Assembly (NCBI GenBank): GCA_023957375.1
Contig: JAMLHB010000003.1
Coordinates: 5,830 to 69,829, forward strand
Direction: 5' to 3'
DNA: 64,000 bases
DNA from: Flavobacteriales bacterium
Lineage (GTDB): Bacteria > Bacteroidota > Bacteroidia > Flavobacteriales_F > PHOS-HE28
In this document: piece after piece, positions 22,661 through 56,910 of the stretch
Numbering within the stretch: position 1 is the stretch's first letter
How the letters are laid out: every line of letters begins with the position of its first letter
Made by a program: the position numbers and the translations under genes
Notes under the pieces: generated by a model
Seen by the model: the letters and a program-made list of their open reading frames with translations, nothing else
Told to the model about the DNA's origin: nothing
Database searches by the model: none

Positions 22661-22735
22661 GGTTGTCAGTTGCCCGTTGTCAGTGGATGTCATCTACAAG
22701 TGACAACAGGAAACTCGGACCTGACAACTATGAAC
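22661..22735. repeat. Heptamer repeat array with inverted partner (GTTGTCA ... TGACAAC)
   Basis: ggttgtcagttgcccgttgtcag ... tgacaacagg...ctgacaac, between ctaA and pyrC. Confidence 0.6.
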
Positions 22736-22748
22736 TGATACCTGCCAC

Positions 22749-24026
22749 CTACGAACCATGTCCCCACCGCATCTGCCCGTTCGCCACAATACCCATGGCC
22801 TTGCCCGTGAAGCGGTGGCCAAGGAAAGGCGTGTTGTGTGAGCGGCTGACGATGTCCGAATTAGAGAACTGCCATTGATGCGCCGGTGCAAAAAGCGTTA
22901 ACTCGGCCATTTCACCTTCGGCGATGTGCGGCACGGGCAGGCCCAACACGGCCCGCGGACCATGGCAAAAGCGTTCCACGATGCGGCGGCCAGTCATGCG
23001 CCCCTGCAAGGCGGTGTTGGCCACGGCATAGGCGGTTTCCAGTCCGATGATGCCGAAGGCAGCGTGGCCGAACTCCAGCTTTTTGTGCTCCACATCCTCC
23101 GGCCGGTGGTCGCTGACGATGCTGTCGATGGTGCCGTCCTTCACGCCTTCGCGCAGGGCTTCGATGTGCTCCGGGCTGCGGAAGGGCGGCATCACCTTGT
23201 AATGGCTGTCGAAGCCGCGCAGCACGCCGTCGTCCAACAGCAGGTGGTGGGCACAAACGCTGGCCGTAACGCGCAGTTTGCGCGCCTTGGCCTCCCTGAT
23301 CAACGCCACGCCTTCGGCAGTGCTCACCGCTTCCACGTGCAGACGCGAACCCGTGTACTCCAGCAACTGCAGGTCGCGGGCCAGGCGGACGGGCTCGGCC
23401 ATGGCAGGCATGCCCCGCAGGCCCAAGCGCGTGCTCATCACGCCTTCATGCATCTGCCCATCCCGCATGAGGTCGGGGTCTTGCGGCATGGCCATGACCA
23501 GGCCATTGAAGTTGTGCGCGTACTGCAGGGCCAACAGCATCAGGCGGGCATTGCGCACCGGGTGCAGATCGTCGGTGAAGCCCACCGCGCCAGCCTGCTG
23601 CATGTCGTACAGTTCGGCCAGCTGTTCCCCCTTCCCGCCTTTGGTGAGGGTGCCCAACGGAAGCAGGCGCACCGCGTGGCCCTGGCTCTTGCGCAGCAGA
23701 TATTCCACCGTGGCGCGCTGGTCCACCGGAGGCGAGGTGCCTGGCAGCACGGCCACGGCCGTATAGCCTCCGGCGGCCGCGGCATCCAAGCCGCTCCGCA
23801 CATCCTCCTTGTATTCTTCGCCGGGATCGCAGAAGTGGGCGCGCAGGTCCACCCATCCGGGCGAGGCGTGCAGGCCTTCCACCGCGATCACTTCGGCATC
23901 GCCCTTGGGCAACTTGGCCCCGGCCCTCAATAGGCGGCCTTCGGAAAAGTGCAGGTCGGCCACCGTATCGTGCAGCGGCCCACCGGGATCGGTGATCGCC
24001 ACTTGGCGGAAGAGCAGGTCGTTCAT
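22749..24026 (-). CDS. pyrC: Dihydroorotase
   Basis: MNDLLFRQVAI...GWVDLRAHFCDPGEEYKEDV amidohydrolase signature. ATGA overlap with the upstream gene at 24023-24026. Confidence 0.8.
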   Translation of the reverse strand: MNDLLFRQVAITDPGGPLHDTVADLHFSEGRLLRAGAKLPKGDAEVIAVEGLHASPGWVDLRAHFCDPGEEYKEDVRSGLDAAAAGGYTAVAVLPGTSPPVDQRATVEYLLRKSQGHAVRLLPLGTLTKGGKGEQLAELYDMQQAGAVGFTDDLHPVRNARLMLLALQYAHNFNGLVMAMPQDPDLMRDGQMHEGVMSTRLGLRGMPAMAEPVRLARDLQLLEYTGSRLHVEAVSTAEGVALIREAKARKLRVTASVCAHHLLLDDGVLRGFDSHYKVMPPFRSPEHIEALREGVKDGTIDSIVSDHRPEDVEHKKLEFGHAAFGIIGLETAYAVANTALQGRMTGRRIVERFCHGPRAVLGLPVPHIAEGEMAELTLFAPAHQWQFSNSDIVSRSHNTPFLGHRFTGKAMGIVANGQMRWGHGS

Positions 24027-26059
24027 CGGCTGGTGCGGATCAAAAGGACCTCCAACATAAGGAACAGGAGCGCCGCCGCAATGAACCACTTCCAAAGCTT
24101 GGTGCCCTGGTCAAGCGATTTCAGATCGGCTGCAAGCTCGTTGCCGGTCTTGTCCAACAGGGTAATGGAGGTGATGCCGTGCTTGGCCAGCTCCTCCTTC
24201 AGTTGCTCCGGCGAATAGGCGCCGAGGTCACCCTCCTTTCGGGGCAAATTGAGCGCGAGGAGGGCGGCCGTATCGCTGCCTGCGGTGAGGGCATAGGTGC
24301 CGGGGGCGATATCCTCATCGTGCAGCACTATGGAGATGCCGCCGAGGGTGCGGCGCACTTCGGGGATCAGGGCCATGCCACCAGCACCCTTCAACTGGGG
24401 TGGTGCCTCCCCCGGAAGGTCCACGCCCTCCAATGTTACCACCGCTTCCCCGCCGATGATGTGGTACAGGGCACCTGCGGGCCTGGCCAGTTCGGCCATG
24501 CGCAACAGGGAAGTGACAAACAAGGCATGGCCACTGAAATTGCCTCCGGCGGCTCCAAGGGGCGCGGCACACAAATAGGCCCTTCCCTTGCCGATGGGCA
24601 CCGCGCTTAGAAAGGCGCTACCGGACTGTAGCCGCAACAGCACCTCCGCCGCCGGGCCCGGCGTGATCGCATAGCGCGTGCGCACCAAGGGCAGGTCCAC
24701 GTTGGCAGGCATGCTGTTGAACACATCGCGGTAGAACGGCGCGCGCAGGTCGATACGCTCCACCCGCATGGCGGCGGTGTCGCGCACGCCCATCCCGGCG
24801 CTAAACTGCGACAACGCTCCCCGATAGGACGGTTCATCCACGCGGTCAGCCGGGAAAATGGCCACACTGCCCCCGCCCTCCGCGAATTCCCGAACCGCGC
24901 CGGCCAGCCCGCTGGACAGGTCCGGCAGGCCATTGAGCACCACCAAGTCCTGCGAGGCCAAGGAGGCCAGGTCCACCTGCCGGTATGGTTGGGTGGAAAA
25001 AGCATAGGCACTATCGCCCCGGAACACCGCCTCGATGTCTTTGTCGCTCGCCGGATCCCCGCCACCCAAGAGCAGGACGTGCAGCTTCCCGGTGGTGCGG
25101 TAAGCGATGTGCATCACGTTGTCGAAGGTGATGGGCCGGTCGTCGATCTCCACCGTGCCGGTATGGAACCCGGGACTGTCGTTGGTGAAATTGAGCACGG
25201 TGTCCACCTGGGCTCCAGGCCCGATACCGAAGGTGGCCATCGCCCGCTGCCGCCCGTCGATGCCAAGTTTGAGCGGCACGTTGTGCAGTGCCAAGCTGCC
25301 GTAGTTCCGTACGCGTACATTCAGTTGTTCCACTTGGCCCATGCGCCGCACTGGATTGCCAAACCATACGGAATCAATGGCCAGGTTGTCCGCACTGGCC
25401 GCTTCCAACGGCACGATCACCGTTTGCACCGCACTGTCGTTGCTCCATTGCTCCACGTCGGTCACCGCCCGCTGCAGGTCCGTGAACAAGAACGCCTTCT
25501 TCACCGGTGCCTCGCTGCGCGCAAGGGCTTCACGCTGCCGCTCCATCACTTGGGAAAGCGGGCGGGAGTACGGCCCCACCTCCACCTGGCCGGCGGCCGC
25601 CAGCGCTTCATCGCGGCCCAGCAGCATCTGCTGTCGGCCTTCGAAGCGGTTGGTGAGCACCTGGAAGCGGTCCGTGGGCTTGTAGGCCATCACCACATCT
25701 TGCGCGTCGGTGCGGGCCTGGTCCAGCAGGCGGCCCGCGCCGTTCTGGCCGTCCATGCTCCAGCTATCGTCCAGATAAAGGCTTACCGCGCGCTGACCGG
25801 CCACCACCGCACCGTTCTTGCTGCGGAAGTACGGCTGCGCAAAGGCCAGTACGATGCTCGCCAAGGCCAACAGCCGCGCGAGTAACACCAACCAGTGGCG
25901 CACTTTCTTGCGTGAGCGCGTCTGCTGCGTCACCTCCTGCAGGAACTGCACGTTGGGGAATTCGATGCGCTTGAAGCGCCGGAGCTGGAAGAGGTGGATG
26001 ATGACCGGGATGGCCAGCGCGGTGAGCGCCCAGAGGAAATTCGGATAGAGGAAGGCCAT
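24023..26059 (-). CDS. BatA-like protein with N-terminal double-TM domain and vWA-like region
   Basis: MAFLYPNFLWALTALAIPVIIHLFQLRRFKRIEFPNVQFL is the typical N-terminal double-transmembrane domain. MIDAS-like DDSWSMDG motif. Confidence 0.6.
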   Translation of the reverse strand: MAFLYPNFLWALTALAIPVIIHLFQLRRFKRIEFPNVQFLQEVTQQTRSRKKVRHWLVLLARLLALASIVLAFAQPYFRSKNGAVVAGQRAVSLYLDDSWSMDGQNGAGRLLDQARTDAQDVVMAYKPTDRFQVLTNRFEGRQQMLLGRDEALAAAGQVEVGPYSRPLSQVMERQREALARSEAPVKKAFLFTDLQRAVTDVEQWSNDSAVQTVIVPLEAASADNLAIDSVWFGNPVRRMGQVEQLNVRVRNYGSLALHNVPLKLGIDGRQRAMATFGIGPGAQVDTVLNFTNDSPGFHTGTVEIDDRPITFDNVMHIAYRTTGKLHVLLLGGGDPASDKDIEAVFRGDSAYAFSTQPYRQVDLASLASQDLVVLNGLPDLSSGLAGAVREFAEGGGSVAIFPADRVDEPSYRGALSQFSAGMGVRDTAAMRVERIDLRAPFYRDVFNSMPANVDLPLVRTRYAITPGPAAEVLLRLQSGSAFLSAVPIGKGRAYLCAAPLGAAGGNFSGHALFVTSLLRMAELARPAGALYHIIGGEAVVTLEGVDLPGEAPPQLKGAGGMALIPEVRRTLGGISIVLHDEDIAPGTYALTAGSDTAALLALNLPRKEGDLGAYSPEQLKEELAKHGITSITLLDKTGNELAADLKSLDQGTKLWKWFIAAALLFLMLEVLLIRTSR

Positions 26060-26108
26060 GCGGGGCGCAAAGGTGGGGATAGTTCCGGGTTCGCAGGGCG
26101 TGGTTCGT

Positions 26109-26232
26109 GGTTGTCAAGGCGTGGTTCGCAGTTGTCAGTTGTCTGTTGTCAGGCTTTCTGCGACCAGCCTCCGACCACTGACAACCGACAACTGACAACT
26201 GACAACCGAAAACTGATCACTGAGAACTGCCC
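26109..26232. repeat. Heptamer repeat array with inverted partner
   Basis: gttgtcaaggcgtggttcgcagttgtcagttgtctgttgtcagg ... ctgacaaccgacaactgacaactgacaaccgaaaactga. Confidence 0.7.
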
Positions 26233-26240
26233 CACCCCTT

Positions 26241-27908
26241 TCACTCCCCCGCCAACCGGCTATTCCTCCTCCCATAAGCAAAATACACGGCCAGCCCCAG
26301 CGCCATCCACCCGAAGAAGACGGCCCAGCTCTTGGCGGGGATCTCGATCATCAGGTAGGCGCAGCTGAGCATGCCGATGCAGGGGATCAGCGAGTAGTTA
26401 CGCCGGAAGGCTTGCACGGCGGTGCCTATGGCGAAGAGGGTGAACGCGGCAAGGAGTATGGCTTGGCGATCTAAGTGCAGGCTGGTGAAGGCGTTGGTGA
26501 TCCGCACGCGGTCCAGCAGCAGGTAGGCCAGCACGATGGCGGGTATGAAGTACTTGCCGGGGATGAACGGGATGCGGAAACGCTTGCGCCCGCTGGCATC
26601 ACGGGCATCCAAGCGCGGCAGCAGCAGCACGCCGGCGCACACCAGGGTGAACGCGAACAGCGTGCCGATGGAAGTGAGGTCCGTGATGATGCCGCTGGGC
26701 GCCAGCAGCGCGGGGATGCCCACCAGCACACCGGTGACCACTGTGGCGAACGCGGGCGTTCCGTACTTGCGGTGCAGGTGGCCGAAGCGCGGCGGCAGCA
26801 GCCCGTCGCGGCTCATGCTCATCCAGATGCGCGGCTGGCCCAGTTGGAAAACGAGCAGCACGCTGGTGGCCGCCAGCACGGCGCCGATGCTCACCACAAA
26901 GCCGAAGCCGCCCAGGCCCACCTTGTTGAACACGTAGGCCAGCGGGTCCATCACGCCCTTGAAATCGGTGTAGGGCACCATGCCGGTGAGCACCAAGGCG
27001 GTAACGCAGTAGATCACCGTGCAGATCACTAAGGACCAGATCATGCTGCGGGGCAGGTCGCGCTGCGGGTCCTTGCACTCCTCCGCCGTGGTGCTGATGG
27101 CGTCAAATCCGATGTAGGCGAAGAACACCGCACTGACACCTTTCAACACACCGCCCATGCCGTTGGGCAGGAAGGGCACGTAGTTGGCGCCGTTGATGTA
27201 CCACAGCCCCACCAGCGCCACTGCCGCCAGCAGCACCAGCTTCAGGATCACCATGCCGTTGGCCACGCGCTTGCTTTCCTTGATGCCCACGTACACCACG
27301 GCGGTGATCAGCACGGTGATCAGCAATGCCGGGATGTTCATGATCACGCGCCAGCCGCCCACCACCGGCGCGGAGGCCCAGGCCAGGGCTTCCGTGGGCT
27401 GCCCCAACTGCTTGGCATGCTCGAAAGCTTCCTTCGCGCCCAACGGATCGGTGGCTAACCACGGCGGCAGGTGCAGCCCAAAGGCCGCGAGGATGTTGGT
27501 GAAATAGCTGCTCCACGAAATGGCCACCACCACGTTGCCGATGGCGTATTCCAGGATCAGCGCCCAGCCGATCACCCAGGCCACCACCTCGCCAAAACTG
27601 ACGTAGCTGTAAGTGTACGCGCTGCCGCTCACCGGCACGCGCCCGGCGAATTCCGCGTAGCACAGCGCCGTGAAGCCGCACACAGCCGCGGTGATGATGA
27701 ACAGGAACACCACGCCCGGACCGCCCTCGTAAGCCGCCGCGCCCACGGTGCTGAAGATGCCTGCACCGATCACCGCCGCCACGCCCATCAGCGTGAGGTC
27801 GCGTACGGTGAGCGTGCGCTTCATGGCCGGATGCCCGTCCGCCTCCCGCGCTTCGTGCTCCCGCAGGATGCGTTCCACGGATTTCTTTCGGAAGAGGTCG
27901 TTGGCCAT
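26241..27908 (-). CDS. Amino acid permease (APC superfamily)
   Basis: 12-TM protein with GAGIF motif (LMGVAAVIGAGIFSTVG) and a typical APC N-terminus. Confidence 0.8.
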   Translation of the reverse strand: MANDLFRKKSVERILREHEAREADGHPAMKRTLTVRDLTLMGVAAVIGAGIFSTVGAAAYEGGPGVVFLFIITAAVCGFTALCYAEFAGRVPVSGSAYTYSYVSFGEVVAWVIGWALILEYAIGNVVVAISWSSYFTNILAAFGLHLPPWLATDPLGAKEAFEHAKQLGQPTEALAWASAPVVGGWRVIMNIPALLITVLITAVVYVGIKESKRVANGMVILKLVLLAAVALVGLWYINGANYVPFLPNGMGGVLKGVSAVFFAYIGFDAISTTAEECKDPQRDLPRSMIWSLVICTVIYCVTALVLTGMVPYTDFKGVMDPLAYVFNKVGLGGFGFVVSIGAVLAATSVLLVFQLGQPRIWMSMSRDGLLPPRFGHLHRKYGTPAFATVVTGVLVGIPALLAPSGIITDLTSIGTLFAFTLVCAGVLLLPRLDARDASGRKRFRIPFIPGKYFIPAIVLAYLLLDRVRITNAFTSLHLDRQAILLAAFTLFAIGTAVQAFRRNYSLIPCIGMLSCAYLMIEIPAKSWAVFFGWMALGLAVYFAYGRRNSRLAGE

Positions 27909-27941
27909 GTGAGGATTGATGCGGGGAAAGTAGGAAAAGAG

Positions 27942-28077
27942 CAGTTGTCCGTTGCAAGTTGCCGGTGGAAAGGGCGCAGGGTCTGGTTCGTAGGGCGTAG
28001 GGCGTAGGGCGTAGTTCGCAGGGCATGGTTGATGGTCCTTCTGGACGTATTCCTCCCCACGAACTACGAACTGCGCA
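27942..28077. repeat. Heptamer repeat arrays (GTTGTCC and GTAGGGC/GTAGTTC) with inverted partner
   Basis: gttcgtagggcgtagggcgtagggcgtagttcgcagggc ... cacgaactacgaactgcgcac. Confidence 0.7.
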
Positions 28078-28123
28078 CGTTGCCCTGTTGGCAGGGCGCA
28101 GGGTGCAGTGCGTGGTGCCGGGT

Positions 28124-29291
28124 TTAGATCCGCGCCAGCGCCTGCTCCAGATCGGCGATCAGCAGTTGCGGGTCTTCCAAGCCCACGTAGATCCGCACCA
28201 AGTCCCAGGGCAGTTCACCTTGTGGGGCCTGGGGATCCATGGTGGCTGCCGTGGGGAACTGCAGCGATTCGTAGCCGCCCCAGCTCACCGCCATCAGGAA
28301 GCGTTTCAAGGCGTTGCAGAAGCGCTCCACCCCGGCGATGTCAGGGGCCTCTACACGAATGCTCATCAGACCTGCGCAGCGCTTCATCTGCCGCTTGGCC
28401 AAAGCCTGTTGCGGAAAGCCGTCCAGAAACGGCCAGTTCACTTGCGCCACCTTGGGGTGCGCCTCCAGGAACTTGGCCACCTGTTCCGCACTGTCGGCAC
28501 TGCGGTGCATGCGGAGCTCCAGCGTCCGCAGGCCGCGCATCAACAGCCATGCATCGTGCGGCGAAGGGATCGCCCCCAAGGTCATGAATTCCTTGGCCAT
28601 CACTTGGCGGATGTGTTCACGGCTTCCGGCCAGCACCCCGCACACCACGTCGCTGTGGCCGTTCAGGTACTTCGTTCCACTGTGCGCCACCAGGTCGATG
28701 CCCAGGTCGATCGGGTTCTGGAACAGCGGACTGCTATAGCTGTTGTCGCATACCGTGAGGATGCCGTGCTCCTTGGCGATGGCCGCCACGGCGCGCAGGT
28801 CCTGCAGCTCGAAGGTGATGGAGTTCGGGCTTTCCAGGATGAAGAGCCGCGTGCTTGGCGTAACGGCGCGGCGGAAGTGCTCCGCATCGGTGCCGTCCAC
28901 GTAGGTGTGTGTCACGCCGAAGCGTTCCAGCAGTTCGTTGAGCAACTTGGTGGTCCAGCTGTAGGGCTTTCGCACGCACACGATGTGGTCGCCTGCCTTC
29001 ACGAAGCTGAGCACCCCCGCCGCGATGGCCGCGCTGCCGCTGCCGAAGAGCAAGGCATCTTCCGCGTGTTCCAACGCGGCCAGCTTCCTGCGCACCACGG
29101 CCACCGTGGGGTTCGCACCGCGGGTGTACAGCGGCACGTCGAACTCGTTGCGCATGGCGTTGCGCAGTGCTTCCACCGTGGGGTAGGTGAAGTTGCCGCT
29201 CTGCACCACCGGCGGCACCACCGCGTGGAAGCCAGCCACGCGGTCTTCGCCAAGGTGGTTCAGGATGAAGGAGAGGTCGTCTGTGTCCACG
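28124..29291 (-). CDS. Cys/Met-metabolism PLP-dependent enzyme (cystathionine gamma-synthase/beta-lyase family). Likely GTG start.
   Basis: Sequence DVPLYTRGANPTVAVVRRKLAALEHAEDALLFGSGSAAI...HSGTKYLNGHSDVV contains the PLP-lysine motif. No ATG lies in a plausible position, so the GTG at 29291 is assumed. Confidence 0.7.
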
Positions 29292-29777: not shown

Positions 29778-31514
29778 TCACGGAGCGTTCCTCCCGAAAA
29801 ACACAAACCCGTTCTTGCGGTATAGCTCCTGCAATCCGGGGATGGCCGCCACTTCTTCCGCGCTGGTCACCTTGCACATGACGTACACTGGCCTGCCCAC
29901 GTTGCCGGTGAGCAGCCAATTTTCGCTCTGCACGCGGGAGTCGGTGATGGGCGGCATGCGCGTGTAGAACCACTGCGCGTAGCTCTTGTAGCCCTTGGTC
30001 ATCACGTAGCAGGTTTCGCCCTGCCGCTGCTGGAAGAATTCCACGGCCGCACGCTGCGAATACCCTTCGATGCGGTTGATGAAATAGTACAGCGTGATGG
30101 TGACGAACAGCGCCGTGCCGCCGAACACCGCCACGATGCCGCTGCGGTATTCGCGTTTGGCGAAGAAGCGGTGGCCCAGATAGAGCACCACGCACATCCA
30201 CACGCCCGCCAACGCTTCCCAGCCGCTCCAATGCACTTCCGCCATCAAGTTGCCTTGCGCGAAGGGGTCGCTCTTCAACAACGGAATGATCCATTCCGGG
30301 TGCATGCCGATGAACGGCAACACCAACGTGACCAGCGCGAAGAGCGTGCCGATACCGCCCATCAGCAGCCGCGACCACAGCGTGGCCCTCCCGCCGTTCC
30401 ATAGCCGCTCCAATTGCAGCGCCGCGAGGAAGGTGAGCGGGAAGTAGCACAGGCTGCTGTAGTGGACGATCTTGGTCTTGACGATGCTGAAGAGGATGAA
30501 CACGACCCAGAAAAGGATGAGGAGCCACTTGCGGTAGTTGTCCGTTGTCCGTTGTTGATTAGCTCCCTCAGCGGTCTCCCGAAGGGGACCCTGAGGCAAA
30601 GGGTGCATACAAGGTCCGCTGCGCGAGACCTTGATGGAGCTAGTTCCCCTGACTATCTCCTGCAGGGCAAAGACCGATGCGGGGAAGCAGCCGATGAGCA
30701 GCACCACGAAATGGTAGCCGAAGAAGCCGCCGTGGCCGGCATCCTCGGTGCTGAGCATGGCCACCTGCCGCCAGAAGAAGGCGGTGAAGAACACGGGGCC
30801 GTTGCGCAGCAGGTCCGCGCCGAACCACAGGCCGGGCACTAACAGCAGCACGCCCAGCATCAACAGCACGCGCGGGATGGAAACGTAGAGGCGGAACCGG
30901 TTCCACACCCAGTACACCAGCGCGCACAGCGCGGGGATCAGCACGCCCACCGGCCCTTTGGTGAGCACGGCCAGCCCCATCCAAAGCCCGGCCATGGCTG
31001 CGGAAAGGTTCTTCCTCCGGGCTGAAAGACCCGCGCTGGCCGGTGTGTCGGTGCTGCGGATGAACCCCAGGAAGCCGAGGAAGATGAAGAAGTTGAACCA
31101 GGGATCGATGATGCCGCTGCGGAAGTAGAGGTTTGGCAGGATGGAGCCGATATAGGCCAGCACCCAGAGCAGCCCGAAGCTGCGGTTGCGCAGCCGCGTG
31201 CCGATGCGGAACAGCACCAACAGCGTGGCCACGCCGCACAACGCGTTGGGCAGGCGCGCCGCAAACTCGCCCACGCCAAACACCGACATGCTGAGCGCCT
31301 GCATCCACATAAAGAGCGGCGGCTTCTCATAGAACGGCACATAGCCGATCTGCGGCTGCAGCCAGTTGTGCGTGGCCAGCATCTCCCGCGCGATCTCCGC
31401 GAAGTTGATCTCGTCCCAATCGAACAGGTGTACCGCACCCAAGCCGGGCACAAAGAGCAGCAACGCCAACAAGGCGATCAGCCACGAGATGCTGCGGTTG
31501 GACAGGCCCTTCAT
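29778..31514 (-). CDS. GT39/GT83-family glycosyltransferase (ArnT/PMT-like), carrying an in-frame repeat insertion
   Basis: MKGLSNRSISWLIALLALLL...DEINFAEIAREML...YFEKPPLFMW is ArnT/PMT_2-like. A ~42 aa insertion (RGTSSIKVSRSGPCMHPLPQGPLRETAEGANQQRTTDN) is encoded by the palindromic element. Confidence 0.75.
   Translation of the reverse strand: MKGLSNRSISWLIALLALLLFVPGLGAVHLFDWDEINFAEIAREMLATHNWLQPQIGYVPFYEKPPLFMWMQALSMSVFGVGEFAARLPNALCGVATLLVLFRIGTRLRNRSFGLLWVLAYIGSILPNLYFRSGIIDPWFNFFIFLGFLGFIRSTDTPASAGLSARRKNLSAAMAGLWMGLAVLTKGPVGVLIPALCALVYWVWNRFRLYVSIPRVLLMLGVLLLVPGLWFGADLLRNGPVFFTAFFWRQVAMLSTEDAGHGGFFGYHFVVLLIGCFPASVFALQEIVRGTSSIKVSRSGPCMHPLPQGPLRETAEGANQQRTTDNYRKWLLILFWVVFILFSIVKTKIVHYSSLCYFPLTFLAALQLERLWNGGRATLWSRLLMGGIGTLFALVTLVLPFIGMHPEWIIPLLKSDPFAQGNLMAEVHWSGWEALAGVWMCVVLYLGHRFFAKREYRSGIVAVFGGTALFVTITLYYFINRIEGYSQRAAVEFFQQRQGETCYVMTKGYKSYAQWFYTRMPPITDSRVQSENWLLTGNVGRPVYVMCKVTSAEEVAAIPGLQELYRKNGFVFFGRNAP
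30533..30660. repeat. MITE-like palindromic element inserted in-frame in the GT39 gene
   Basis: Heptamers gttgtccgttgtccgttgtt, terminal inverted repeats gattagctcc...ggagctagttc, and internal hairpins cctcagcggtctcc-cgaag-gggaccctgagg and caaggtcc-gctgcgcg-agaccttg. Confidence 0.6.
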
Positions 31515-31626
31515 GCGGTGCCGAAGGTAGCGGCGTAAAACGCGTTGCCTTTCCGCAGCGGGCCGGCATTAGGACACGAGCGTGGACGCTCGCGTCAGAG
31601 ATGGGATGGATTCAGCGTGGTCAGCG

Positions 31627-31818
31627 CTACCACTCCGGTTCTTTGTCCTTCTTCTTGAGAGCGAAAAACAACAGCGCACAAAACGTGATCAAGTACAAGG
31701 TATCGATGTAAGGCTTCTCGAACGTGAAGTTCTTGAAGTCCGTGTGTTTATAGAGCGTAAACCCGATCGGGGCCGCCAGGATCAGCAGCAACACGTCCAG
31801 ACGCTTCTTTCGCTTCAT
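31627..31818 (-). CDS. Small membrane protein (63 aa)
   Basis: Two hydrophobic helices. Lower GC. Sits 5 nt downstream of the DUF3667 gene. Confidence 0.4.
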   Translation of the reverse strand: MKRKKRLDVLLLILAAPIGFTLYKHTDFKNFTFEKPYIDTLYLITFCALLFFALKKKDKEPEW

Positions 31819-31822
31819 GGTC

Positions 31823-32539
31823 TTACTGCTTGGAGATCAAGTCAACGCCAATACCCACCAATGTAATCGCTATGGCAAAGGAGATCATGCCCAGGATGTA
31901 CGCAAGGAATGCCTTCAGGTAGTTCAACAGCTTGCCTTGCCCATAAAACTGCCCGACCGCCCACGTGATATAGGCAAGCACCACCACCGAACCGAACATC
32001 ACCAAGTTGATGCTGAGCAATTCCTGGGCGATGGCAAGGAATGACAAAACAAGCATGCCCATGCCCATGACAAAGCACAGGAGCACCAAGATCTCGTAGA
32101 GGTTGAAGGGGTGCTTGCGAAAGAACAGCTTCGTCCAGAGTGCGATGAATATCCCCATGATGATATTGGCATACCCGTAATGGCCCTGTATCCACGCCCA
32201 AACCGTAAACACCGCCGATTTCACGGGTGGTTGGAAATTCCCGTATTCTGCTTCGATGTGAAAATAGTGGTTCACCACGGAGTAGAACAGTGAGGTCACG
32301 ATGATGAAGAGGATGGGCTTCACCAATCGGTTCCTGTTCACCAACAGGTAATCCCGGATGCTTTTGCCCGGCCTGGCCAGCATCTCCCTTACGGTGTACA
32401 AGATCCCCCGTTCCAAATGCAGCACATGCTGGACCTCATGGAGCAGGTAGTGCCCATCGATCCGCTTTACTTCCGCTGCTTGCCCGCAATTGGGGCAAAA
32501 CTTGGCGTTCACCTCCTTGGCGCAGTTCGCACAGTTCAT
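31823..32539 (-). CDS. DUF3667-like protein (N-terminal zinc ribbon + multi-TM)
   Basis: MNCANCAKEVNAKFCPNCGQ zinc ribbon followed by ~5 TM helices. Lower GC. Confidence 0.55.
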   Translation of the reverse strand: MNCANCAKEVNAKFCPNCGQAAEVKRIDGHYLLHEVQHVLHLERGILYTVREMLARPGKSIRDYLLVNRNRLVKPILFIIVTSLFYSVVNHYFHIEAEYGNFQPPVKSAVFTVWAWIQGHYGYANIIMGIFIALWTKLFFRKHPFNLYEILVLLCFVMGMGMLVLSFLAIAQELLSINLVMFGSVVVLAYITWAVGQFYGQGKLLNYLKAFLAYILGMISFAIAITLVGIGVDLISKQ

Positions 32540-32734
32540 TCTTTTGGCGGGCTACTTTCTTCTGTCCGTTTGATCCTCGTGCAGGTACTTCGCTTCGAGA
32601 CCCTAATCCTCCCGCAAGGTCTTCGCATCGAGACCCCGCAGTTTGCGCGATGCCGCGGTGAAGCTACGCCAATATCAACCCGTAATGTTTTGGTGCGCAG
32701 GGTCCAGAAACGGAGACACTGAGCGAAGGTAAAG

Positions 32735-32955
32735 AGCCTTCATGCGGTGCCGAAGGTACCGGCGTAGACCGCCTTGCCTTTCCGTAGCGGGCCGACATTA
32801 GGACACGAGCGTGGACGCTCGCGTCAGAGATGGGGACACTGAGCGAAGGTAAAGGGCCTTCATGCAGTGCCGAAGGTAGCGGCGTAAAACGCGTTGCCTT
32901 TCCGCTGCGGGCTGGCATTAGGACACGAGCGTGGACGCTCGCGTCAGAGATGGGG
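32735..32955. repeat. Two tandem extra copies of the ~105 bp GT39 5' leader (hairpin + start codon region)
   Basis: Both copies match 31503-31620 (cttcatgcggtgccgaaggtagcggcgtaaaacgcgttgcctttccgcagcgggccggcattaggacacgagcgtggacgctcgcgtcagagatggg) with few mismatches. Confidence 0.85.
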
Positions 32956-33753
32956 TCAAAGAGCAAGCTCGTCAATAATGATATATTTCCGAAAATCAAT
33001 TCCAGGTTTGAAGCGTTTAACTTTACCATCATAAATTATCTTCCCATCAATTCTCCAACGCAGTCGCCAATCATAGTGGGCCGGATGAATAATTGGCCTT
33101 AATAATCTTCTCGTTCGCTCAATAAGCTTTACATTCCATATGTAAGTCGGTGGAGTATTGTCATCTTTTTTGTATCGCTGGTAATTCCATAGTTCAATTG
33201 TTTCATCTGCAAGTTGAGTTAAACTTGTCTGCAAATGTTCTGTCAAGATTAAATAGAGCTCCTTGTTGTCGTCGGAGTTGAGGTTATAATTCTCGGGCGG
33301 GTCAGGAAACTCTACAAAACCCAATCGCTTCCAAAAAGGCTCTGAATCGCTTGGAGAGCATTGCAAATCAACAACACAAACTCCGCTGTCTTTCAGAAAA
33401 TCGAGTACAAAACCAGTCAATTTTTTACCAATTCCTTTCTCGCGATGAGTATGCTTCACCTTCGCTATCTCAATTCTTGCTGTCTTGCCTGTAGTTCGTC
33501 GCCAAGTTGCAAACCCAATAGTTCTATTGTTGAGTGAGATTGTCACCAACTCGTTGTTATCAAACGAAGATTTAATAATGTTCCAATTACAATAAAATCC
33601 GCCTCCAGTTTTTTCCTTCTCCGAACGCAACCACTGTTCTATTTCTTTTACCTGCTTGTTTGTCGGCGAAAGCGATACCCGAAAATTGTCGGTTCCCCTT
33701 TGTATTTCGGCCGCCATAATGTTGCAAAAGTGCAAGGTACCCTCTTTCCGCAT
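32956..33753 (-). CDS. GNAT family N-acetyltransferase, in a markedly low-GC islet
   Basis: Acetyl-CoA binding motif HREKGIGKKLTGFVLDFL. AT-rich codon usage unlike the flanks. Start uncertain (ATG at 33753 or 33717). Confidence 0.6.
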   Translation of the reverse strand: MRKEGTLHFCNIMAAEIQRGTDNFRVSLSPTNKQVKEIEQWLRSEKEKTGGGFYCNWNIIKSSFDNNELVTISLNNRTIGFATWRRTTGKTARIEIAKVKHTHREKGIGKKLTGFVLDFLKDSGVCVVDLQCSPSDSEPFWKRLGFVEFPDPPENYNLNSDDNKELYLILTEHLQTSLTQLADETIELWNYQRYKKDDNTPPTYIWNVKLIERTRRLLRPIIHPAHYDWRLRWRIDGKIIYDGKVKRFKPGIDFRKYIIIDELAL

Positions 33754-33805
33754 ACGCGGAATACGGAGTTTTCAACAACGACCACACTTGGCCATGTACA
33801 TCCCT

Positions 33806-34555: not shown

Positions 34556-34635
34556 TTGGCAAAGATGGGGGAGTTGCCACCAACGGGATGAACAGATCAC
34601 GCAAAGTATGGATAACTTACGCGAAGCCGCGAAGG

Positions 34636-34785
34636 GGGTACTCCAAGAACGCTTGTGGCAGGCACTTGGCAAATACGATGCCTCACGCGAAGCCGCGAAG
34701 GCGCGAAGGGGGTACTCCAAGAACGCTTGTGGCAGGCACTTGGCAAATACGATGCCTCACGCGAAGCCGCGAAGGCGCGAAGGAG
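34636..34785. repeat. Tandem direct repeat, ~75 bp x2, with downstream inverted partial copy
   Basis: gggggtactccaagaacgcttgtggcaggcacttggcaaatacgatgcctcacgcgaagccgcgaaggcgcgaag occurs twice. ccttcgcggcttcgcgtg lies downstream at 34830. Confidence 0.8.
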
Positions 34786-34893
34786 TACTCCTTGATTCGT
34801 GTGAAATACTCCACCTTCCCTGGATGGAACCTTCGCGGCTTCGCGTGCCTCTTCCCCGCCAGCCTGTATGCTTCGCGTGCCTCTTCCCCACCT

Positions 34894-37086: not shown

Positions 37087-37090
37087 CCTG

Positions 37091-38300: not shown

Positions 38301-38329
38301 GGTTGGGGGCGCAAAGGTATTGGGGGAGG

Positions 38330-38410
38330 GCATAGCGCGCAGGGCGTAGTTCGCAGGGTGCAGGCGGGGCCATGCGTGCAGGCACTCTTCCCTACGGACC
38401 ACGAACTATG
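38330..38410. repeat. GTAGTTCG/GCAGGGC repeat with inverted partner between def and ruvX
   Basis: gcgcagggcgtagttcgcagggtgcagg ... ggaccacgaactatg. Confidence 0.55.
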
Positions 38411-44390: not shown

Positions 44391-44393
44391 TCG

Positions 44394-44496
44394 GTTGTCA
44401 GTTGTCAGTTGTCAGTTGTCAGTTGTCGGTTGTCGGTTGTCGGTTGTCGGTTGTCTGTTTCTGGCGCCCCACCCTTACAACGAGCAACTGACAACG
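44394..44496. repeat. Heptamer tandem array (GTTGTCR x ~9) with inverted partial partner, between dapD and the response regulator
   Basis: ggttgtcagttgtcagttgtcagttgtcggttgtcggttgtcggttgtcggttgtctg ... caacgagcaactgacaacgaacaacc. Confidence 0.85.
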
Positions 44497-44520
44497 AACA
44501 ACCACCCTAAAGGAAGAAAA

Positions 44521-46577: not shown

Positions 46578-46634
46578 GCAACTTTTAAGCTCACCTCCAA
46601 GGAAGCCTTAAGCCAAAAAGGCGGCCTTTGCACC

Positions 46635-47891: not shown

Positions 47892-47946
47892 ACAGGCAGT
47901 GGCGATGGCCCGTGAACAACGCAACACCGCAGCCAACGGCCACGCC

Positions 47947-52127: not shown

Positions 52128-52271
52128 CAATGCGAGGAGGCGAAACCCGCAGCCCGCAACCGAACAACCCGCAACCCGGCGAGGAGGTACAGGAGGTAAG
52201 CACCTCATCCATACTCCCCACCCCCGCAGTTACCCTCCGCCACGCATCTTTGCATCCCGCAAGTCCTCCTC

Positions 52272-53462
52272 GTGCCCAAGCAGTTCCTGATCATCCAAAC
52301 CGCCTTCCTCGGCGATGCCGTGCTGGCCACCGGCTTGGCGGAGAAGCTGCATGCGTGGTACCCGGATGCCGCCATTGACCTGGTGGTGCGCAAGGGCAAC
52401 GACGGGTTGTTCAAGGGTCATCCCTTCCTGCGCAAGCTGCACGTTTGGGACAAGAGCCAAGGCAAGAACCGCGACCTCTTCCGACTGGTGCACGCATTCC
52501 GCCGCCAGCGGTACGACCATGTGATCAACGCGCAACGCTTCTTCAGCACCGGGCTGATGGCGGTTCTTTCCGGAGGGAAGGAGACGGTTGGTTACGATAA
52601 GAATCCATTGAGCTTGTTCTTCTCGCGCCGGGTGAAGCACGAGATCCCGGATTGGCGCGTGCTGCGCGGAAAGGCCGCCGGCACCGGTGTGCATGAGATG
52701 GACCGGTTGAATGTGCTGATCGAACACCTCACCGATGGAAAAAGGCCGTTGCCAAGGTTGTACCCTTCGGAGGCGGACCGGGCACAGGTGGCAGGGCTAC
52801 TGGGGCCTCAGGGTCCCGAGGCGGAGGCCCTGAGGGAGCAACCTACCCGAACTCCCGCAGGGTCTCTCGGAGAGGACCCTGCGGACATCCCTCCTCAGGG
52901 TCCCGAAGCGGAGACCCTGAGGGAGCGATCGGGGGCGGAGACCCTGAGGGAGCAATCGGGAACGAGGACCCTGAGGGAGCAGCAATACATCACCATCGCA
53001 CCGGCATCGGTGTGGTACACCAAGCAATGGCCCGCAGGGAAATGGATCGAGCTGATCCAGCTGCTGCCACCGGAACAGCGCGTACTACTGATCGGCGCGC
53101 CGGGTGACGTAACGCTGTGTGATCACATCGCTAAGGAAGCCGGGCGCGGAGAAGTGTTGGCCGGCAAACTGAGCCTGTTGGCCACTGCGGCGTTAATGGA
53201 AGGCGCCATCATGAACTACGTGAACGACAGTGCGCCGCTGCACATCGCCAGCGCGATGAATGCGCCGGTGACAGCGATCTTCTGCAGCACGGTGCCCGCT
53301 TTCGGCTTCGGGCCGCTGCGCCCCAACGGGCGGATCGTGCAACGCGAGGAAACCCTCTACTGCCGCCCTTGCGGCCTGCACGGGCACAAGGCATGTCCCG
53401 AGGGGCATTTCAAATGTGCGTTGGAGGTCCTACCAACCCAGCTGGCCGCCCCGATGCCGTAG
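52272..53462 (+). CDS. GT9 glycosyltransferase (LPS heptosyltransferase family) with a ~60 aa in-frame repeat-encoded insertion. Apparent GTG start.
   Basis: FLIIQTAFLGDAVLATGL ... APGDVTLCD ... VNDSAPLHIASAMNAPVTAIF are heptosyltransferase motifs. The inserted segment is LLGPQGPEAEALREQ...TLREQ. Confidence 0.75.
   Translation: MPKQFLIIQTAFLGDAVLATGLAEKLHAWYPDAAIDLVVRKGNDGLFKGHPFLRKLHVWDKSQGKNRDLFRLVHAFRRQRYDHVINAQRFFSTGLMAVLSGGKETVGYDKNPLSLFFSRRVKHEIPDWRVLRGKAAGTGVHEMDRLNVLIEHLTDGKRPLPRLYPSEADRAQVAGLLGPQGPEAEALREQPTRTPAGSLGEDPADIPPQGPEAETLRERSGAETLREQSGTRTLREQQYITIAPASVWYTKQWPAGKWIELIQLLPPEQRVLLIGAPGDVTLCDHIAKEAGRGEVLAGKLSLLATAALMEGAIMNYVNDSAPLHIASAMNAPVTAIFCSTVPAFGFGPLRPNGRIVQREETLYCRPCGLHGHKACPEGHFKCALEVLPTQLAAPMP
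52797..52990. repeat. Array of CCTCAGGGTCCC-GAAG-CGGAGACCCTGAGG palindromes and half-copies, inserted in-frame in the GT9 gene
   Basis: Units at 52806-52840, 52856-52883 and 52892-52923 (perfect 10 bp stem), plus half-units ggagaccctgagggagc x2. Confidence 0.85.
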
Positions 53463-53603
53463 CAGGACACTGGCGAACGGCTGCGAAATCGACTTGGCCG
53501 GATGCAGGTGAACTTTATGCAAGTTCGTATGTTTCAATCCCGATGTACCGCAGCTTTATTGGCGGACGATGCATCCATCCTTATTCAACCAACTTCGATC
53601 ATC

Positions 53604-54215: not shown

Positions 54216-54287
54216 CGCATGGGTGCGCACCATGGCTACCTTGCGCACCTACTGGACGGCACGCAACCGTAAAAAAACAATCCACCA

Positions 54288-54725: not shown

Positions 54726-54732
54726 GGGATGG

Positions 54733-54848
54733 ATTGTCAGTTGTCAGTTGTCGGTTGCCAGTTGTCAGTTGTCAGTTGTCCGTTGTCCGTTGTTAGGTGT
54801 TAGACGGTACGTCCGCCTGACAACGGACAACTGGCAACCGACAACTAC
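54733..54848. repeat. Heptamer tandem array with inverted partner between convergent genes
   Basis: gttgtcagttgtcggttgccagttgtcagttgtcagttgtccgttgtccgttgtt ... cctgacaacggacaactggcaaccgacaac. Confidence 0.85.
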
Positions 54849-55285
54849 TCGCCAATATCCTCATTCCACAACTCCGGTTTTGCGGCGATGAAGGCTTCCA
54901 TCATCCGCACGCATTCCGGCAGGTCCAGGTCCACCACTTCCACGCCGTGTTCCTCCATGAACCTACGGGCACCGGGAAAAGTGCGGCTTTCGCCCACAAT
55001 GACCTTGGGGATCTTGAACTGCACGATGGTGCCTGCGCACATATAGCACGGCATCAAGGTGGAATAGATCACCGTGTTGCGGTAGCTGCCGATGCGGCCC
55101 GCATTGTTCAGGCAGTCCATTTCGCCGTGCAGAATGGGGTTGCGCTCCTGCACCCGCTTGTTGCGGCCCGTGGCAATGAGCTTGCCGTCCTTGACCAGCG
55201 CGGAGCCGATGGGAATGCCGCCTTCGGCAAGGCCCTTGCGCGCCTCGTCAATGGCGGCTTGCATGAATTGGTCCATGGTGTACAA
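54845..55285 (-). CDS. Nucleoside/tRNA adenosine deaminase (CDA/TadA family)
   Basis: HGEMDC and PCYMCAG zinc-binding motifs. Confidence 0.75.
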   Translation of the reverse strand: MYTMDQFMQAAIDEARKGLAEGGIPIGSALVKDGKLIATGRNKRVQERNPILHGEMDCLNNAGRIGSYRNTVIYSTLMPCYMCAGTIVQFKIPKVIVGESRTFPGARRFMEEHGVEVVDLDLPECVRMMEAFIAAKPELWNEDIGE

Positions 55286-55373
55286 TTGTTCCGGCCTTGA
55301 ATCCTGCTGCGTTCAGTCAGCAAGTTTACCCTCTTCCAACTATTTCACCCGCCCTATTTTCGCGCCCCGTTCA

Positions 55374-56846
55374 ATGGCCCGCGACACCTCATACACCGTA
55401 GACGCTTCCCGCCTGCACGGCGTGCTGGACCAACCGCTCTTTGTGGCGGCCGCGAAGGTGGCCGAACGCATGGGCGTGAAGGCGTACACCATTGGCGGTT
55501 ATGTGCGCGACCTGCTGTTGGGCAAGCCTTGCAAGGACATCGACATCGTATGCGAAGCCGACGGCATTGCGTATGCCCAGGCCGTGGCGCAGGAATTGAA
55601 TGCGGGCCACGTGCATGTCTTCAAGAATTTCGGCACGGCCATGTTCATGCTGGGCGACGTGCAAGTTGAATTCGTGGGGGCGCGCAAGGAGAGTTACAGC
55701 CGCAACAGCCGCAAGCCGGAGGTGGTGCCCGGCACCATCCGCGACGACCAGGAGCGGCGCGACTTCACCATCAATGCCTTGGCCATCCCACTCAACGCGG
55801 AAGACCGCGGGCAGCTGGTCGACCCGTTCTACGGCGTGCACGACCTAGAGCGCGGCATCATCCGCACCCCGCTGGCACCGGACATTACCTTCAGCGACGA
55901 TCCGCTGCGCATGCTCCGTGCCATCCGCTTCGCCACGCAGTTGGGCTTCTTCATCGATGCGCCCACCTTCGAGGCCATCCAGCGGAATGCCGAACGCTTG
56001 GACATCATCAGTGCCGAGCGCATCCACACCGAGCTGAACAAGATCATCGGGGCACCGGTGCCCAGCATCGGCTTCAAGCTGCTCTTAGACAGCGGCCTGC
56101 TGGTGCGCTTCTTCCCCGAAATGGTCGACCTGCTGGGCGCGGAGGAAAAATTCGGCATCGGGCACAAAGACAACTTCTACCACACCATCCAGGTGCTGGA
56201 CAACGTGGCCAAGCACAGCGACGACCTGTGGCTGCGCTGGGCCGCCGTGCTGCACGACATCGCCAAGCCGCGCACCAAACGCTTCGAGCAGGGCCGCGGC
56301 TGGACCTTCCACGGGCATGAGGACAAGGGCGCGCGCATGGTGCCCGGCATCTTCCGCCGCATGAAGCTGCCCTTAGACGAGCAGATGCGCTTCGTGAAAA
56401 AGCTGGTGGCCCTGCACCTGCGCCCCATCGCCCTCACCAAGGAGGAAGTCACCGACAGCGCCGTGCGCCGCCTGCTCTTCGATGCCGGCGACGACATCGA
56501 CGCGCTGATGATCCTCTGCAAGGCGGACATCACCAGCAAGAACGAGGCCCGCAAGAAGCGCTACTTAGCCAACTACGAGCTGGTGCTGGAAAAGCTGAAG
56601 GAAGTGGAGGAAAAAGACCGTGTGCGCAACTTCCAGCCGCCCATCACCGGCGAGGACATCATGGGCGCCTTCAACATCCCGCCCTGCAAGGCCATCGGCG
56701 ACATCAAGACGGTGATCAAGGACGCGATCCTCGACGGCAGGATCCACAACGACCGCGCCGCCGCTTGGCCGTTGATGCTGGAGGAGGGGAAGAAGTTGGG
56801 GCTGACGGTGGTGAATGGGATGGAGGGGCCGGGGAGTAGTTCGTAG
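55374..56846 (+). CDS. cca: tRNA nucleotidyltransferase (CCA-adding enzyme/poly(A) polymerase family) with HD domain
   Basis: GGYVRDLLLGKPCKDIDIV (PolA head), RRDFTINAL, and HD motif HDIAKP. Confidence 0.8.
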   Translation: MARDTSYTVDASRLHGVLDQPLFVAAAKVAERMGVKAYTIGGYVRDLLLGKPCKDIDIVCEADGIAYAQAVAQELNAGHVHVFKNFGTAMFMLGDVQVEFVGARKESYSRNSRKPEVVPGTIRDDQERRDFTINALAIPLNAEDRGQLVDPFYGVHDLERGIIRTPLAPDITFSDDPLRMLRAIRFATQLGFFIDAPTFEAIQRNAERLDIISAERIHTELNKIIGAPVPSIGFKLLLDSGLLVRFFPEMVDLLGAEEKFGIGHKDNFYHTIQVLDNVAKHSDDLWLRWAAVLHDIAKPRTKRFEQGRGWTFHGHEDKGARMVPGIFRRMKLPLDEQMRFVKKLVALHLRPIALTKEEVTDSAVRRLLFDAGDDIDALMILCKADITSKNEARKKRYLANYELVLEKLKEVEEKDRVRNFQPPITGEDIMGAFNIPPCKAIGDIKTVIKDAILDGRIHNDRAAAWPLMLEEGKKLGLTVVNGMEGPGSSS

Positions 56847-56910
56847 TTCGGCGTTCGGAGTGCTCACACCACCAACCACGAACTACGCCCTAACAACGGA
56901 CAACTGGGAT
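56836..56910. repeat. GTAGTTCG repeat with inverted partner plus GGACAAC unit
   Basis: gtagttcgtagttcggcgttcgg ... cacgaactacgccctaacaacggacaactgg. Confidence 0.55.

Follow-up and report, generated by a model that had tools for sequence, protein, structure and literature searches.

Mirrored heptanucleotide repeat arrays beside stop codons in a Flavobacteriales genome

Heptanucleotides are the most over-represented long simple sequence repeats (LSSRs, units of 5–11 nt) in many bacteria, where they are found outside coding regions and have been proposed to arise by polymerase slippage (Mrazek 2007, as summarized in PMC4679880 and PMC4692102). The present analysis concerns a family of such repeats in a 64,000-nt stretch of a Flavobacteriales genome (contig JAMLHB010000003.1; hereafter the window, to which all positions refer, with a GC content of about 60%), in which tandem arrays of 7-nt units are followed, after a spacer, by their reverse complement. 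Repeats of this kind have already been described in Xanthomonas, Cyanobacteria and Bacteroidetes (PMC4692102, PMC4679880); new here are the Flavobacteriales host and units that do not form quadruplexes. It is well supported that the elements are palindromic heptamer microsatellites remodelled in whole units. The fuller reading, that they are palindromic heptanucleotide microsatellites of 3′ spacers, remodelled by slippage, that may serve as stem-loops at mRNA 3′ ends, is adopted here with slightly better than even confidence.

The repeats of Xanthomonas campestris and X. axonopodis consist of 2–26 copies of GGGAATC and are about 90% intergenic (Rehm et al. 2015, PMC4692102). These arrays lie at a mean distance of 28 nt from the upstream open reading frame (ORF), are rare between divergent genes and accompany genes of all functional classes. 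Their length and sequence vary between close relatives, and 70–75 convergent pairs per genome are able to form stem-loops (PMC4692102). TAACTGA and other heptamer arrays have been described in Beggiatoaceae, Cyanobacteria and five Bacteroidetes (MacGregor 2015, PMC4679880). Relatives exist that lack the TAACTGA arrays at the same spacer, insertions and deletions occur in 7-nt steps, and assemblies break inside the repeats. The TAACTGA repeats run in direct orientation immediately before start codons, their RNA is predicted to be unstructured, and a single inverted set is found among 170 in a Beggiatoaceae genome (PMC4679880).

The elements of the window show every structural feature of the Xanthomonas description save quadruplex potential. 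Like the GGGAATC arrays, they form convergent pairs on opposite strands, lie nearer the 3′ end of the upstream ORF and are rare between divergent genes. They differ in their unit and phylum, in being almost all paired, and in having arms with mirrored variant units. Furthermore, GGGAATC units can form G-quadruplexes, whereas the GTTGTCN, GTAGTTC and TGTCNNA units of the window have no G3 runs. Quadruplex potential (at least four G3 tracts) is limited to the GTAGGGC array at 27990–28024, in which four GGG runs are present and an 11-nt loop precedes one of them. A G-quadruplex was rejected as a general reading, being possible for this single array only, and since the window units cannot form such structures, the quadruplex idea raised for Xanthomonas cannot be the general explanation of heptamer arrays.

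With the TAACTGA repeats, the window elements share an intergenic position, patchy occurrence in relatives, 7-nt indels and assembly breaks, and the window unit CAACTGA is one base off TAACTGA. However, the window arrays are paired, form hairpins and lie beside stop codons. The short tandemly repeated repetitive (STRR) sequences of heterocystous cyanobacteria (CCCCAGT, TTGGTCA, CAACAGT) differ from them in both unit and host; cyanobacterial loci were the only ones seen to hold canonical STRR units, and there they co-occur with GTTGTCN arrays, as do TAACTGA-type units. The window also resembles the bacteria of the Mrazek survey in the dominance of period 7, although that survey, as the two later papers cite it, concerns direct arrays and leaves inverted pairing and polarity outside its definition. 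Literature searches for paired heptamer hairpins or for their part in termination yielded nothing specific, and searches on the unit sequences and on heptanucleotide inverted repeats as terminators in Bacteroidetes added nothing beyond PMC4679880.

Random sequence, which an earlier note on this DNA had named as the explanation to be excluded, does not reproduce the arrays. The GTTGTCN doublet GTTGTCNGTTGTC (at most one mismatch) has 32 matches in the window against 0.35 ± 0.58 expected from dinucleotide-preserving shuffles, all 32 of them confined to the places listed in that note, and GTAGTTCG (at most one mismatch) has 57 against 24 ± 5.6. Seven is the sole enriched repeat period, with 6 arrays compared to 0.0 in shuffles, while the other periods from 4 to 12 gave 0–2. 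Tandem Repeats Finder reports 9.4 copies at 44394–44459 (unit GTTGTCA, 96% matches) and 8.6 copies at 54734–54793, together with matching GACAAC arrays downstream of the GTTGTCN arrays. The repeats thus qualify as heptanucleotide LSSRs, with tandem 7-nt units above chance.

At every one of the nine paired sites, the + strand array stands to the left of the − strand array, so that a G+T-rich array is followed by a spacer and then by its reverse complement. An independent inverted-repeat search pairs 54746–54775 with 54817–54846 over 30 nt at 97% complementarity, and the variant units GTTGTCG, GTTGCCA and GTTGTCA occur in mirrored order in these two arms. The three differing units of the 10913–10977 arms are likewise mirrored, with 100% complementarity over 27 bp. 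Because variant units occur in mirrored order, the arms are true mirror copies of each other.

These results bear out the recurring family of 7-mer arrays with downstream inverted arrays that the earlier note had described, as all eight places that it listed hold tandem heptamers. An inverted partner is present at the seven intergenic sites, but the intragenic copy at 30533 has none. The sites themselves are genuine, although several extend further than had been reported (22655–22749, 26086–26229 and 44391–44503), and the list was incomplete: the paired elements 10913–10977 and 20969–21064 lie upstream of the reported span, and an unpaired array lies at 52144–52178. The listed sites are also of uneven strength, 38330 being weak (about 2.3 copies of a 14-mer, fold z −1.2) and 22661 being built of degenerate units. 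The elements are collected in Table 1.

Table 1. Heptamer arrays of the window. Fold values are kcal/mol and z-scores of the sense-orientation RNA against shuffles. In the text, sites are also named by a position at or near the edge of the element or array (for example, 44394 for 44391–44503).
Position	Strand	Composition	Fold	Context
10913–10977		Perfect 27-bp palindrome: TGTCCGA TGTCTTA TGTCCTA .. TAGGACA TAAGACA TCGGACA (repeat search, 100% complementary)	−47.6; z −11.0	Between RNase E/G gene stop (10999) and recX start (about 10879)
20969–21064		(GGCAGGY)x4 array, then CTACTGCCCGCTGCC-type units		Left arm 3 nt after CNNM/CorC gene stop; right arm within gldD signal-peptide coding part (gene calls taken from strain L320)
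22655–22749		Degenerate GTTGTCA / GTTGCCC / GTTGTCA array, then seven degenerate TGNNAAC units	z −2.8	Right end overlaps TAG stop of amidohydrolase gene; left end 16 nt from ctaA start codon
26086–26229		Composite left arm (GTGGTTC/GCAGGGC units, GTTGTCN x4), 25-nt loop, right arm NGACAAC x8	−60.2; z −3.4	Between amino-acid permease gene stop (26241) and batA start (26059)
27942–28112		Left part: GTTGTCC/GTTGCAA/GTTGCCG units, GTAGGGC x3.7, GTAGTTC, GCAGGGC; right part, after loop: GAACTAC GAACTGC and GCAGGGC-type repeats	z −2.0	Between Cys/Met pyridoxal phosphate (PLP) enzyme gene stop (28124) and permease start (27908)
30537–30555	+	Unpaired GTTGTCC x2.7		Inside coding region; not a hairpin element
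38327–38410		Weak member: GCGCAGGGC GTAGTTC GCAGGGT .. CCACGAACTAT	z −1.2	ruvX TAG stop within right arm; promoter-like TACCTTTG box of def gene just left
44391–44503		Longest pure array, (GTTGTCA)x5 (GTTGTCG)x4, loop, four degenerate NGACAAC units	−46.6; z −4.5	Begins 3 nt past dapD stop; ends 17 nt before response-regulator gene start
52144–52178	+	A+C-rich AACCCGC x4.9 array; no clear inverted partner		17 nt past resistance-nodulation-division (RND) transporter gene stop
54734–54846		Nine GTTGTCN/GTTGCCA units, 18-nt loop, four mirrored units	−62.2; z −8.5	Fills spacer between stops of convergent cytochrome c gene (+) and cytidine/dCMP deaminase gene (−)
56836–56905		GTAGTTC x2 + GGCGTTC, then CCACGAACTAC GCCCTAA CAACGGA CAACTG	z −2.5	CCA-adding enzyme gene TAG stop within left arm

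All nine paired sites adjoin a stop codon, in agreement with the earlier placement of the arrays at gene 3′ ends or between convergent genes; the distance to the stop codon is 0–21 nt and that to the next start codon 16–46 nt. Three stop codons (those of ruvX, the amidohydrolase and the CCA-adding enzyme) lie inside a GTAGTTC-like unit that is the first or last of its element. The flanking genes run in the same direction at 8/9 sites and are convergent at 1/9 and divergent at 0/9. The non-coding bias of LSSRs is evident as well, with 10/11 arrays being intergenic or touching only a stop codon. The exception, 30537–30555, translates in frame on the − strand as NQQRTTDN. These residues lie in a variable loop of a glycosyltransferase (PMT_2) that can be aligned with its orthologue over its full length. 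The genes beside the elements are housekeeping genes: ctaA, the dihydroorotase-like amidohydrolase, batA, the amino-acid permease, the Cys/Met PLP enzyme, ruvX, def, dapD, a two-component system, the RND pump, cytochrome c, cytidine deaminase, the CCA-adding enzyme, RNase E/G, recX and gldD.

The copy number of the arrays was compared between independent same-species assemblies from several samples, found by exact-protein matches (L122–L124 and L320–L325). The earlier proposal that copy number changes by slippage is supported by these strains, which differ from the window by 21 nt at 54733, 14 nt at 27990 and about 33 nt at 26109. At 54733, the window is three units longer than L123 and L124, while L122 has a different unit make-up and the right arm is invariant. 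At 27990, strains L320 and L323 are two GTAGGGC units shorter than the window, and at 26109 it is the 5′ arm that is shorter in L321, L322 and L325. The differences of 21 and 14 nt are multiples of 7 and constitute the whole-unit copy-number polymorphism by which LSSRs are recognized. On the other hand, arrays of 2–4 or degenerate units are unchanged in seven to eight strains: 22661 in 7, 20969 in 7 (bar one base) and 56836 in 8. Long pure arrays that vary next to short or degenerate ones that are stable are the classic behaviour of slippage-prone microsatellites.

Strains also differ in the units themselves. At 26109, one unit of each arm differs in L321, L322 and L325, which read GTTGCC (5′ arm) and GGCAAC (3′ arm) in place of the GTTGTC and GACAAC of the window. 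In the 27942 spacer, L321 and L322 carry an unrelated heptamer hairpin, GGCAGTG GGCAGTT .. CTGCCTACCCGCC, next to which the promoter-like box is conserved. Replication slippage would add or remove 7-nt units in one arm, and the arms would be kept complementary by template switching from one to the other (quasi-palindrome correction) or by selection for pairing. The sample of strains has its bounds at some loci: no exact-protein matches were found for DapD, the deaminase, the permease, the response regulator or RecX, and the exact match to the PIN protein is only a 932-nt contig that ends short of the 44394 array. A strain with 99.7% identity has a contig that ends within this same array. In strain L324, only the promoter-proximal arm is kept at 26109, with the breakpoint inside the heptamer element, and in its segment 1–3080, compared with 26060–28000 of the window, two Por_Secre_tail genes (type IX secretion system cargo) replace the amino-acid permease upstream of batA. 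As this breakpoint lies inside a heptamer element, the arrays may mark rearrangement junctions.

Beyond the species, the relative L002 (DapD 89% identical, synteny over about 20 kb) has no heptamer array of at least three units in 20 kb, and it carries no array between dapD and the response-regulator gene, where a lone GTTGCCA-like unit is found. The 38330 element, on the other hand, is 85% identical in L002, compared to about 81% for the flanking coding DNA. In the RNase G–recX spacer, long heptamer-periodic hairpins follow the RNase G stop also in relatives with 67–74% RecX identity, about 30–110 nt upstream of recX, and are thus shared by several genera. Their units are TGTCNNA in L339 and L340, whose hairpin is of the same type as, and at the same place as, window 10913–10977, and AGCNNCA in L337, L372 and L371. 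One spacer can thus hold differing heptamer hairpins in different strains or species. The RNase G–recX hairpins show three compensatory pair changes relative to the window and two relative to each other. Its location in the 3′ region of the RNase E/G gene makes the hairpin a possible target of RNase E/G.

The presence of an element at 44394 in the window and its absence from L002 could also be read as the trace of a mobile element, namely a non-autonomous element of the MITE (miniature inverted-repeat transposable element) or REPIN (REP doublet forming a hairpin) type that is moved in trans by a transposase reading the heptamer arrays as terminal or subterminal repeats. The several copies per genome, the fixed orientation of the two ends and a distribution that spans many phyla and extends to contigs classed as viral would agree with such an origin. 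However, the copies have no conserved loop, core or termini, their arm lengths are unequal and change in place by 7-nt steps, and no target-site duplication is seen at 44394, where the GTTGCCA-like unit of L002 could be a seed or a remnant alike. Furthermore, a scan of 20 window ORFs, taken from beside the arrays and from the 31.8–42.6 kb stretch, gave 0 matches to a transposase or the Y1/RAYT (REP-associated tyrosine transposase) family. A mobile origin is hence regarded as very improbable.

Repetitive extragenic palindromic (REP) sequences and bacterial interspersed mosaic elements (BIMEs) of enterobacteria and pseudomonads occupy the 3′ spacers of housekeeping operons; they are imperfect palindromes, often bidirectional, that can stabilise upstream mRNA or attenuate read-through. 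REP sequences consist of a conserved palindrome of 20–40 nt, accompanied by a RAYT transposase, instead of tandem units, whereas the copies in the window share only a 7-nt unit. Membership in the REP/REPIN class with RAYT was rejected, there being no shared palindrome, unrelated loops and flanks and no Y1 transposase match among the 20 ORFs scanned, as was membership in the MITEs, for which a conserved core, a target-site duplication at 44394 and a transposase among the scanned ORFs are all wanting. Arrays of clustered regularly interspaced short palindromic repeats (CRISPR), with repeats of 23–55 nt and unique spacers of about the same length, had already been set aside in the earlier note, and rightly so, as the window units are 7 nt long and directly abutting. 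Integron attC sites are imperfect palindromes that follow a cassette ORF, their 5′ end having the consensus RYYYAAC and their 3′ end GTTRRRY. This class was rejected too, as the polarity of the window elements is opposite (GTT... first, ...AAC last) and their units fit neither consensus.

GTTGTCN arrays are found in other genomes as well. A scan for (GTTGTCN)x4 with one genome per species gave at least 119 stretches, which among the matches listed come from Bacteroidota, Cyanobacteria, Acidobacteriota, Planctomycetota, Chloroflexota and others. The loci bearing GTTGTCN hold many further units, including classical STRR units and TAACTGA, and at loci of other repeat-bearing genomes period 7 is the commonest (308 arrays against at most 54 for any other period, among the matches listed). 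The unit is not exceptionally frequent, because permuted controls form arrays about as often in viral contigs, where 4-unit arrays account for 58 stretches with GTTGTCN, 21 with GTGTTCN and 106 with GGTTCTN. The idea of GTTGTCN as a specially conserved cross-phylum motif is weakened by these counts.

The unit and its permuted controls differ in pairing. An inverted partner lies within 150 nt of 47/145 GTTGTCN arrays at bacterial loci (among the matches listed) and 34/82 at viral loci, compared to 1/34 for GTGTTCN and 6/131 for GGTTCTN, that is 32–41% against 3–5%. The order of the arms is also nearly fixed. The G+T-rich array is the 5′ arm in 80/81 paired GTTGTCN arrays (among the matches listed); an unbiased scan of both arm orders gave 20 G+T-first sites and 1 A+C-first site, and all nine paired window sites are G+T-first, whatever the unit. 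Such near-absolute polarity across units and phyla was not found described in the heptamer-repeat literature (PMC4692102, PMC4679880). The loops of paired arrays measure 8 to 112 nt and have no common sequence. Flanking-gene orientation in other genomes was also assigned automatically, but only 10 cases were usable (8 with genes in the same direction, 1 convergent, 1 divergent) and one window site was misclassified, so that this assignment was given no weight. Among contigs classed as viral, IMGVR_UViG_3300043379_000009 (42.6 kb; L137, L144, L157, L172) contains at least seven GTTGTCN arrays, several of them paired; it is either a misclassified chromosome piece or a phage or prophage that shares the repeat type of its host.

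A fixed polarity is typical of operator-like sites, and the arrays may be conceived as binding sites for a protein, possibly an oligomer, that reads GTTGYCN on DNA or RNA, with a functional head-to-head layout and an incidental hairpin. The same GTTGTCN unit recurs at many window loci, the same paired unit is found in Bacteroidota, Acidobacteriota, Planctomycetota, Cyanobacteria and Chloroflexota, and at six sites the arrays lie 5–35 nt upstream of promoter-like TAC(C/T)TT(T/C)G boxes. Nevertheless, this explanation is judged quite improbable, as the unrelated units TGTCNNA, GGCAGGC, GTAGTTC and AGCNNCA share the architecture, loop length (8 to 112 nt), copy number and promoter distance are inconstant, and the frequency of the unit is unexceptional compared with the permuted controls. 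Moreover, a scan of window ORFs gave no candidate protein and no conserved neighbouring gene.

The strict polarity, together with a pairing rate tenfold higher than that of permuted control heptamers, might be the signature of one distinct element class of the (GTTGYCN)n-loop-(NGRCAAC)m type, made or maintained by a specific mechanism instead of arising as independent slippage products. Such a class may span Bacteroidota, Acidobacteriota, Planctomycetota, Cyanobacteria, Chloroflexota and some contigs classed as viral, and candidate mechanisms may include a protein that reads the unit in one orientation, directional inverted duplication, or co-transcriptional folding that needs the G/U-rich arm first. 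This suggestion is speculative and considered improbable, if somewhat less so than the binding-site explanation.

The promoter-like boxes mentioned above lie beyond the far end of the element at the six sites and 10–25 nt upstream of the next ATG. They are located at about 22650, 26068, 27925, 38316, 10897 (− strand) and 56928 (+ strand), and are often followed by CGCCCC. The −7 promoter element of Bacteroidota is TAnnTTTG, which the TAC(C/T)TT(T/C)G box resembles, and its closeness to the start codons implies very short 5′ leaders. An outward-facing CTGACA of the A+C-rich arm could be taken for a −35 box; this was rejected for the present host, because the host boxes are of the Bacteroidota TAnnTTTG type and sigma-70-type promoter matches in the window are fewer than in shuffles. 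At gldD, the GGCAGGC array of 20969–21064 just upstream pairs with the signal-peptide coding sequence (LLPAATRLLPAAL..), and the region of the start codon would sit in a stem with a folding energy of −43 kcal/mol, or −55 for the opposite strand, a predicted fold that suggests possible translational control.

For the paired elements in general, a role at the 3′ ends of transcripts is put forward tentatively, at somewhat less than even confidence. By analogy with REP sequences, the transcribed element would fold into a long stem-loop without a U-tract and punctuate transcription units, acting either to pause or attenuate read-through or to block 3′-to-5′ exonucleases, and the strength of the stem-loop would change with unit number. 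The position beside stop codons, the lack of an excess of canonical terminators and the persistence or replacement of hairpins at the same spacer favour such a role. Canonical terminators, a hairpin plus a T-run, show no excess in the window (16, 18 and 12 sites, where shuffles gave 18.3, 18.3 and 17.8), which makes another kind of 3′-end signal plausible. In having a stem-loop right after the stop codon, the elements are like intrinsic terminators, and 54734–54846 is placed like a bidirectional one. They differ from intrinsic terminators in their longer (20–35 pairs) and imperfect stems and the absence of a U-tract directly after a GC-rich stem-loop, and at least one element lies within a probable operon. 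A consensus terminator scan of the window reports none of the heptamer sites. Rfam gives 0 matches at the gathering threshold in the whole window, and at a lenient threshold 22500–28300 yields only sub-threshold matches to eukaryotic microRNA hairpins.

Several observations weigh against the reading of the elements as slippage-remodelled microsatellites with a role at mRNA 3′ ends. The 38330 and 27942 elements fold only marginally better than shuffled sequence. No T-run follows any hairpin, as tails such as CCGCCGCCCG and CCACCCTAAAGG illustrate, and the sense transcript folds less well than the antisense at 6/7 sites with a single sense strand; because the sense transcript does not fold better, there is no G-U signature of RNA-level selection. 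The 44394 element is hardly an efficient terminator, since in L002 dapD and the response-regulator gene are 23 bp apart, and no promoter-like box was seen downstream of the element; the two genes are probably co-transcribed, as judged from their spacing, which would place the element within an operon. The suggestion of the earlier note that the arrays may be terminators is thus not established, given the missing T-runs, the lack of a sense-strand advantage and the location of 44394 inside a probable operon. The same element was moreover either gained in the window lineage or lost in L002. The compensatory changes in the RNase G–recX hairpins are not significant with two to three sequences (68/500 and 202/500 shuffles reach the observed values), and DNA-level correction between the arms would give the same pattern without selection. 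The proposed model also gives no reason for the G+T-rich arm always being the 5′ arm. Finally, assemblies of metagenome-assembled genomes (MAGs) can collapse repeats, but a sequencing read is longer than these arrays, and the independent assemblies are in agreement with one another.

A number of these observations would be expected if the elements were neutral or selfish by-products of slippage and template switching that persist where they are harmless, i.e. after stop codons and not at divergent promoters or in genes, and have no cellular role. On that account, a folding advantage of the sense strand and T-runs are not to be expected, presence and length may differ freely between strains and species, and permuted heptamers should be about as frequent in viral contigs, as is the case (21 and 106 against 58). 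Rehm et al. likewise found no regulatory role for the Xanthomonas GGGAATC repeats and explained their position bias as promoter avoidance (PMC4692102). A purely neutral origin is therefore a serious rival, yet it is thought unlikely on present evidence, and it leaves the polarity rule and the high pairing rate unexplained: symmetric mutation does not predict G+T-first arms at 20 to 1 (80 to 1 for GTTGTCN, among the matches listed), and the pairing of GTTGTCN far exceeds that of the controls. It is also at odds with the heptamer hairpin that persists in the RNase G–recX spacer across 67–74% RecX identity with changes on both arms, with the exchange of one hairpin for another at 27942, and with the conservation of 38330, which is at least that of the flanking coding DNA.

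With hairpin architecture, stop-codon position and 7-nt strain turnover all visible in one 64-kb stretch, the window offers a clean case from another phylum. If the elements define RNA 3′ ends, the gene-end signals of high-GC Flavobacteriales would be unconventional, lacking a U-tract, and hypermutable, which would bear on operon and terminator annotation in MAGs. Short-read assemblies break at the arrays, which could also be of use as strain markers. The G+T-first rule is a simple and testable regularity.

The window contains further repeats that are not built of heptamers. A second family at 52806–52981 combines a 27-nt tandem unit AGCGGAGACCCTGAGGGAGCAATCGGG (x2.8) with CCTCAGGG..CCCTGAGG palindromes within a Glyco_transf_9 ORF (52272–53462). 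A related palindrome, AGCTCCCTCAGCGGTCTCCCGAAGGGGACCCTGAGG, lies at 30560–30596 in frame in the PMT_2 ORF, exactly at an 11-residue gap of L002. As with the Rickettsia palindromic elements, the family appears to be a palindromic insertion that preserves the reading frame of the coding sequence. A 2.2-kb segment of low GC content at 31548–33802 (49% compared to about 61%) is missing from the otherwise syntenic L002 and is probably an inserted island. It holds genes for a DUF3667 protein and a GNAT acetyltransferase, and a 120-nt tandem repeat (x2.0, 91% matches) at 32715–32955. A 74-nt tandem repeat (x2.3, 96% matches) with CGCGAAGG octamer runs is found at 34620–34847, and a perfect 18-nt inverted repeat joins 34758–34775 with 34830–34847. 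Finally, inverted copies (94% complementary) of a 31-nt GC-rich hairpin element, CGCCCGCGTTTGCAACGCGGGCG, are located at 3367–3397 and 3493–3523, just past the stop of a 957-aa ORF (489–3362), where they form a gene-end hairpin that is not heptamer-built.

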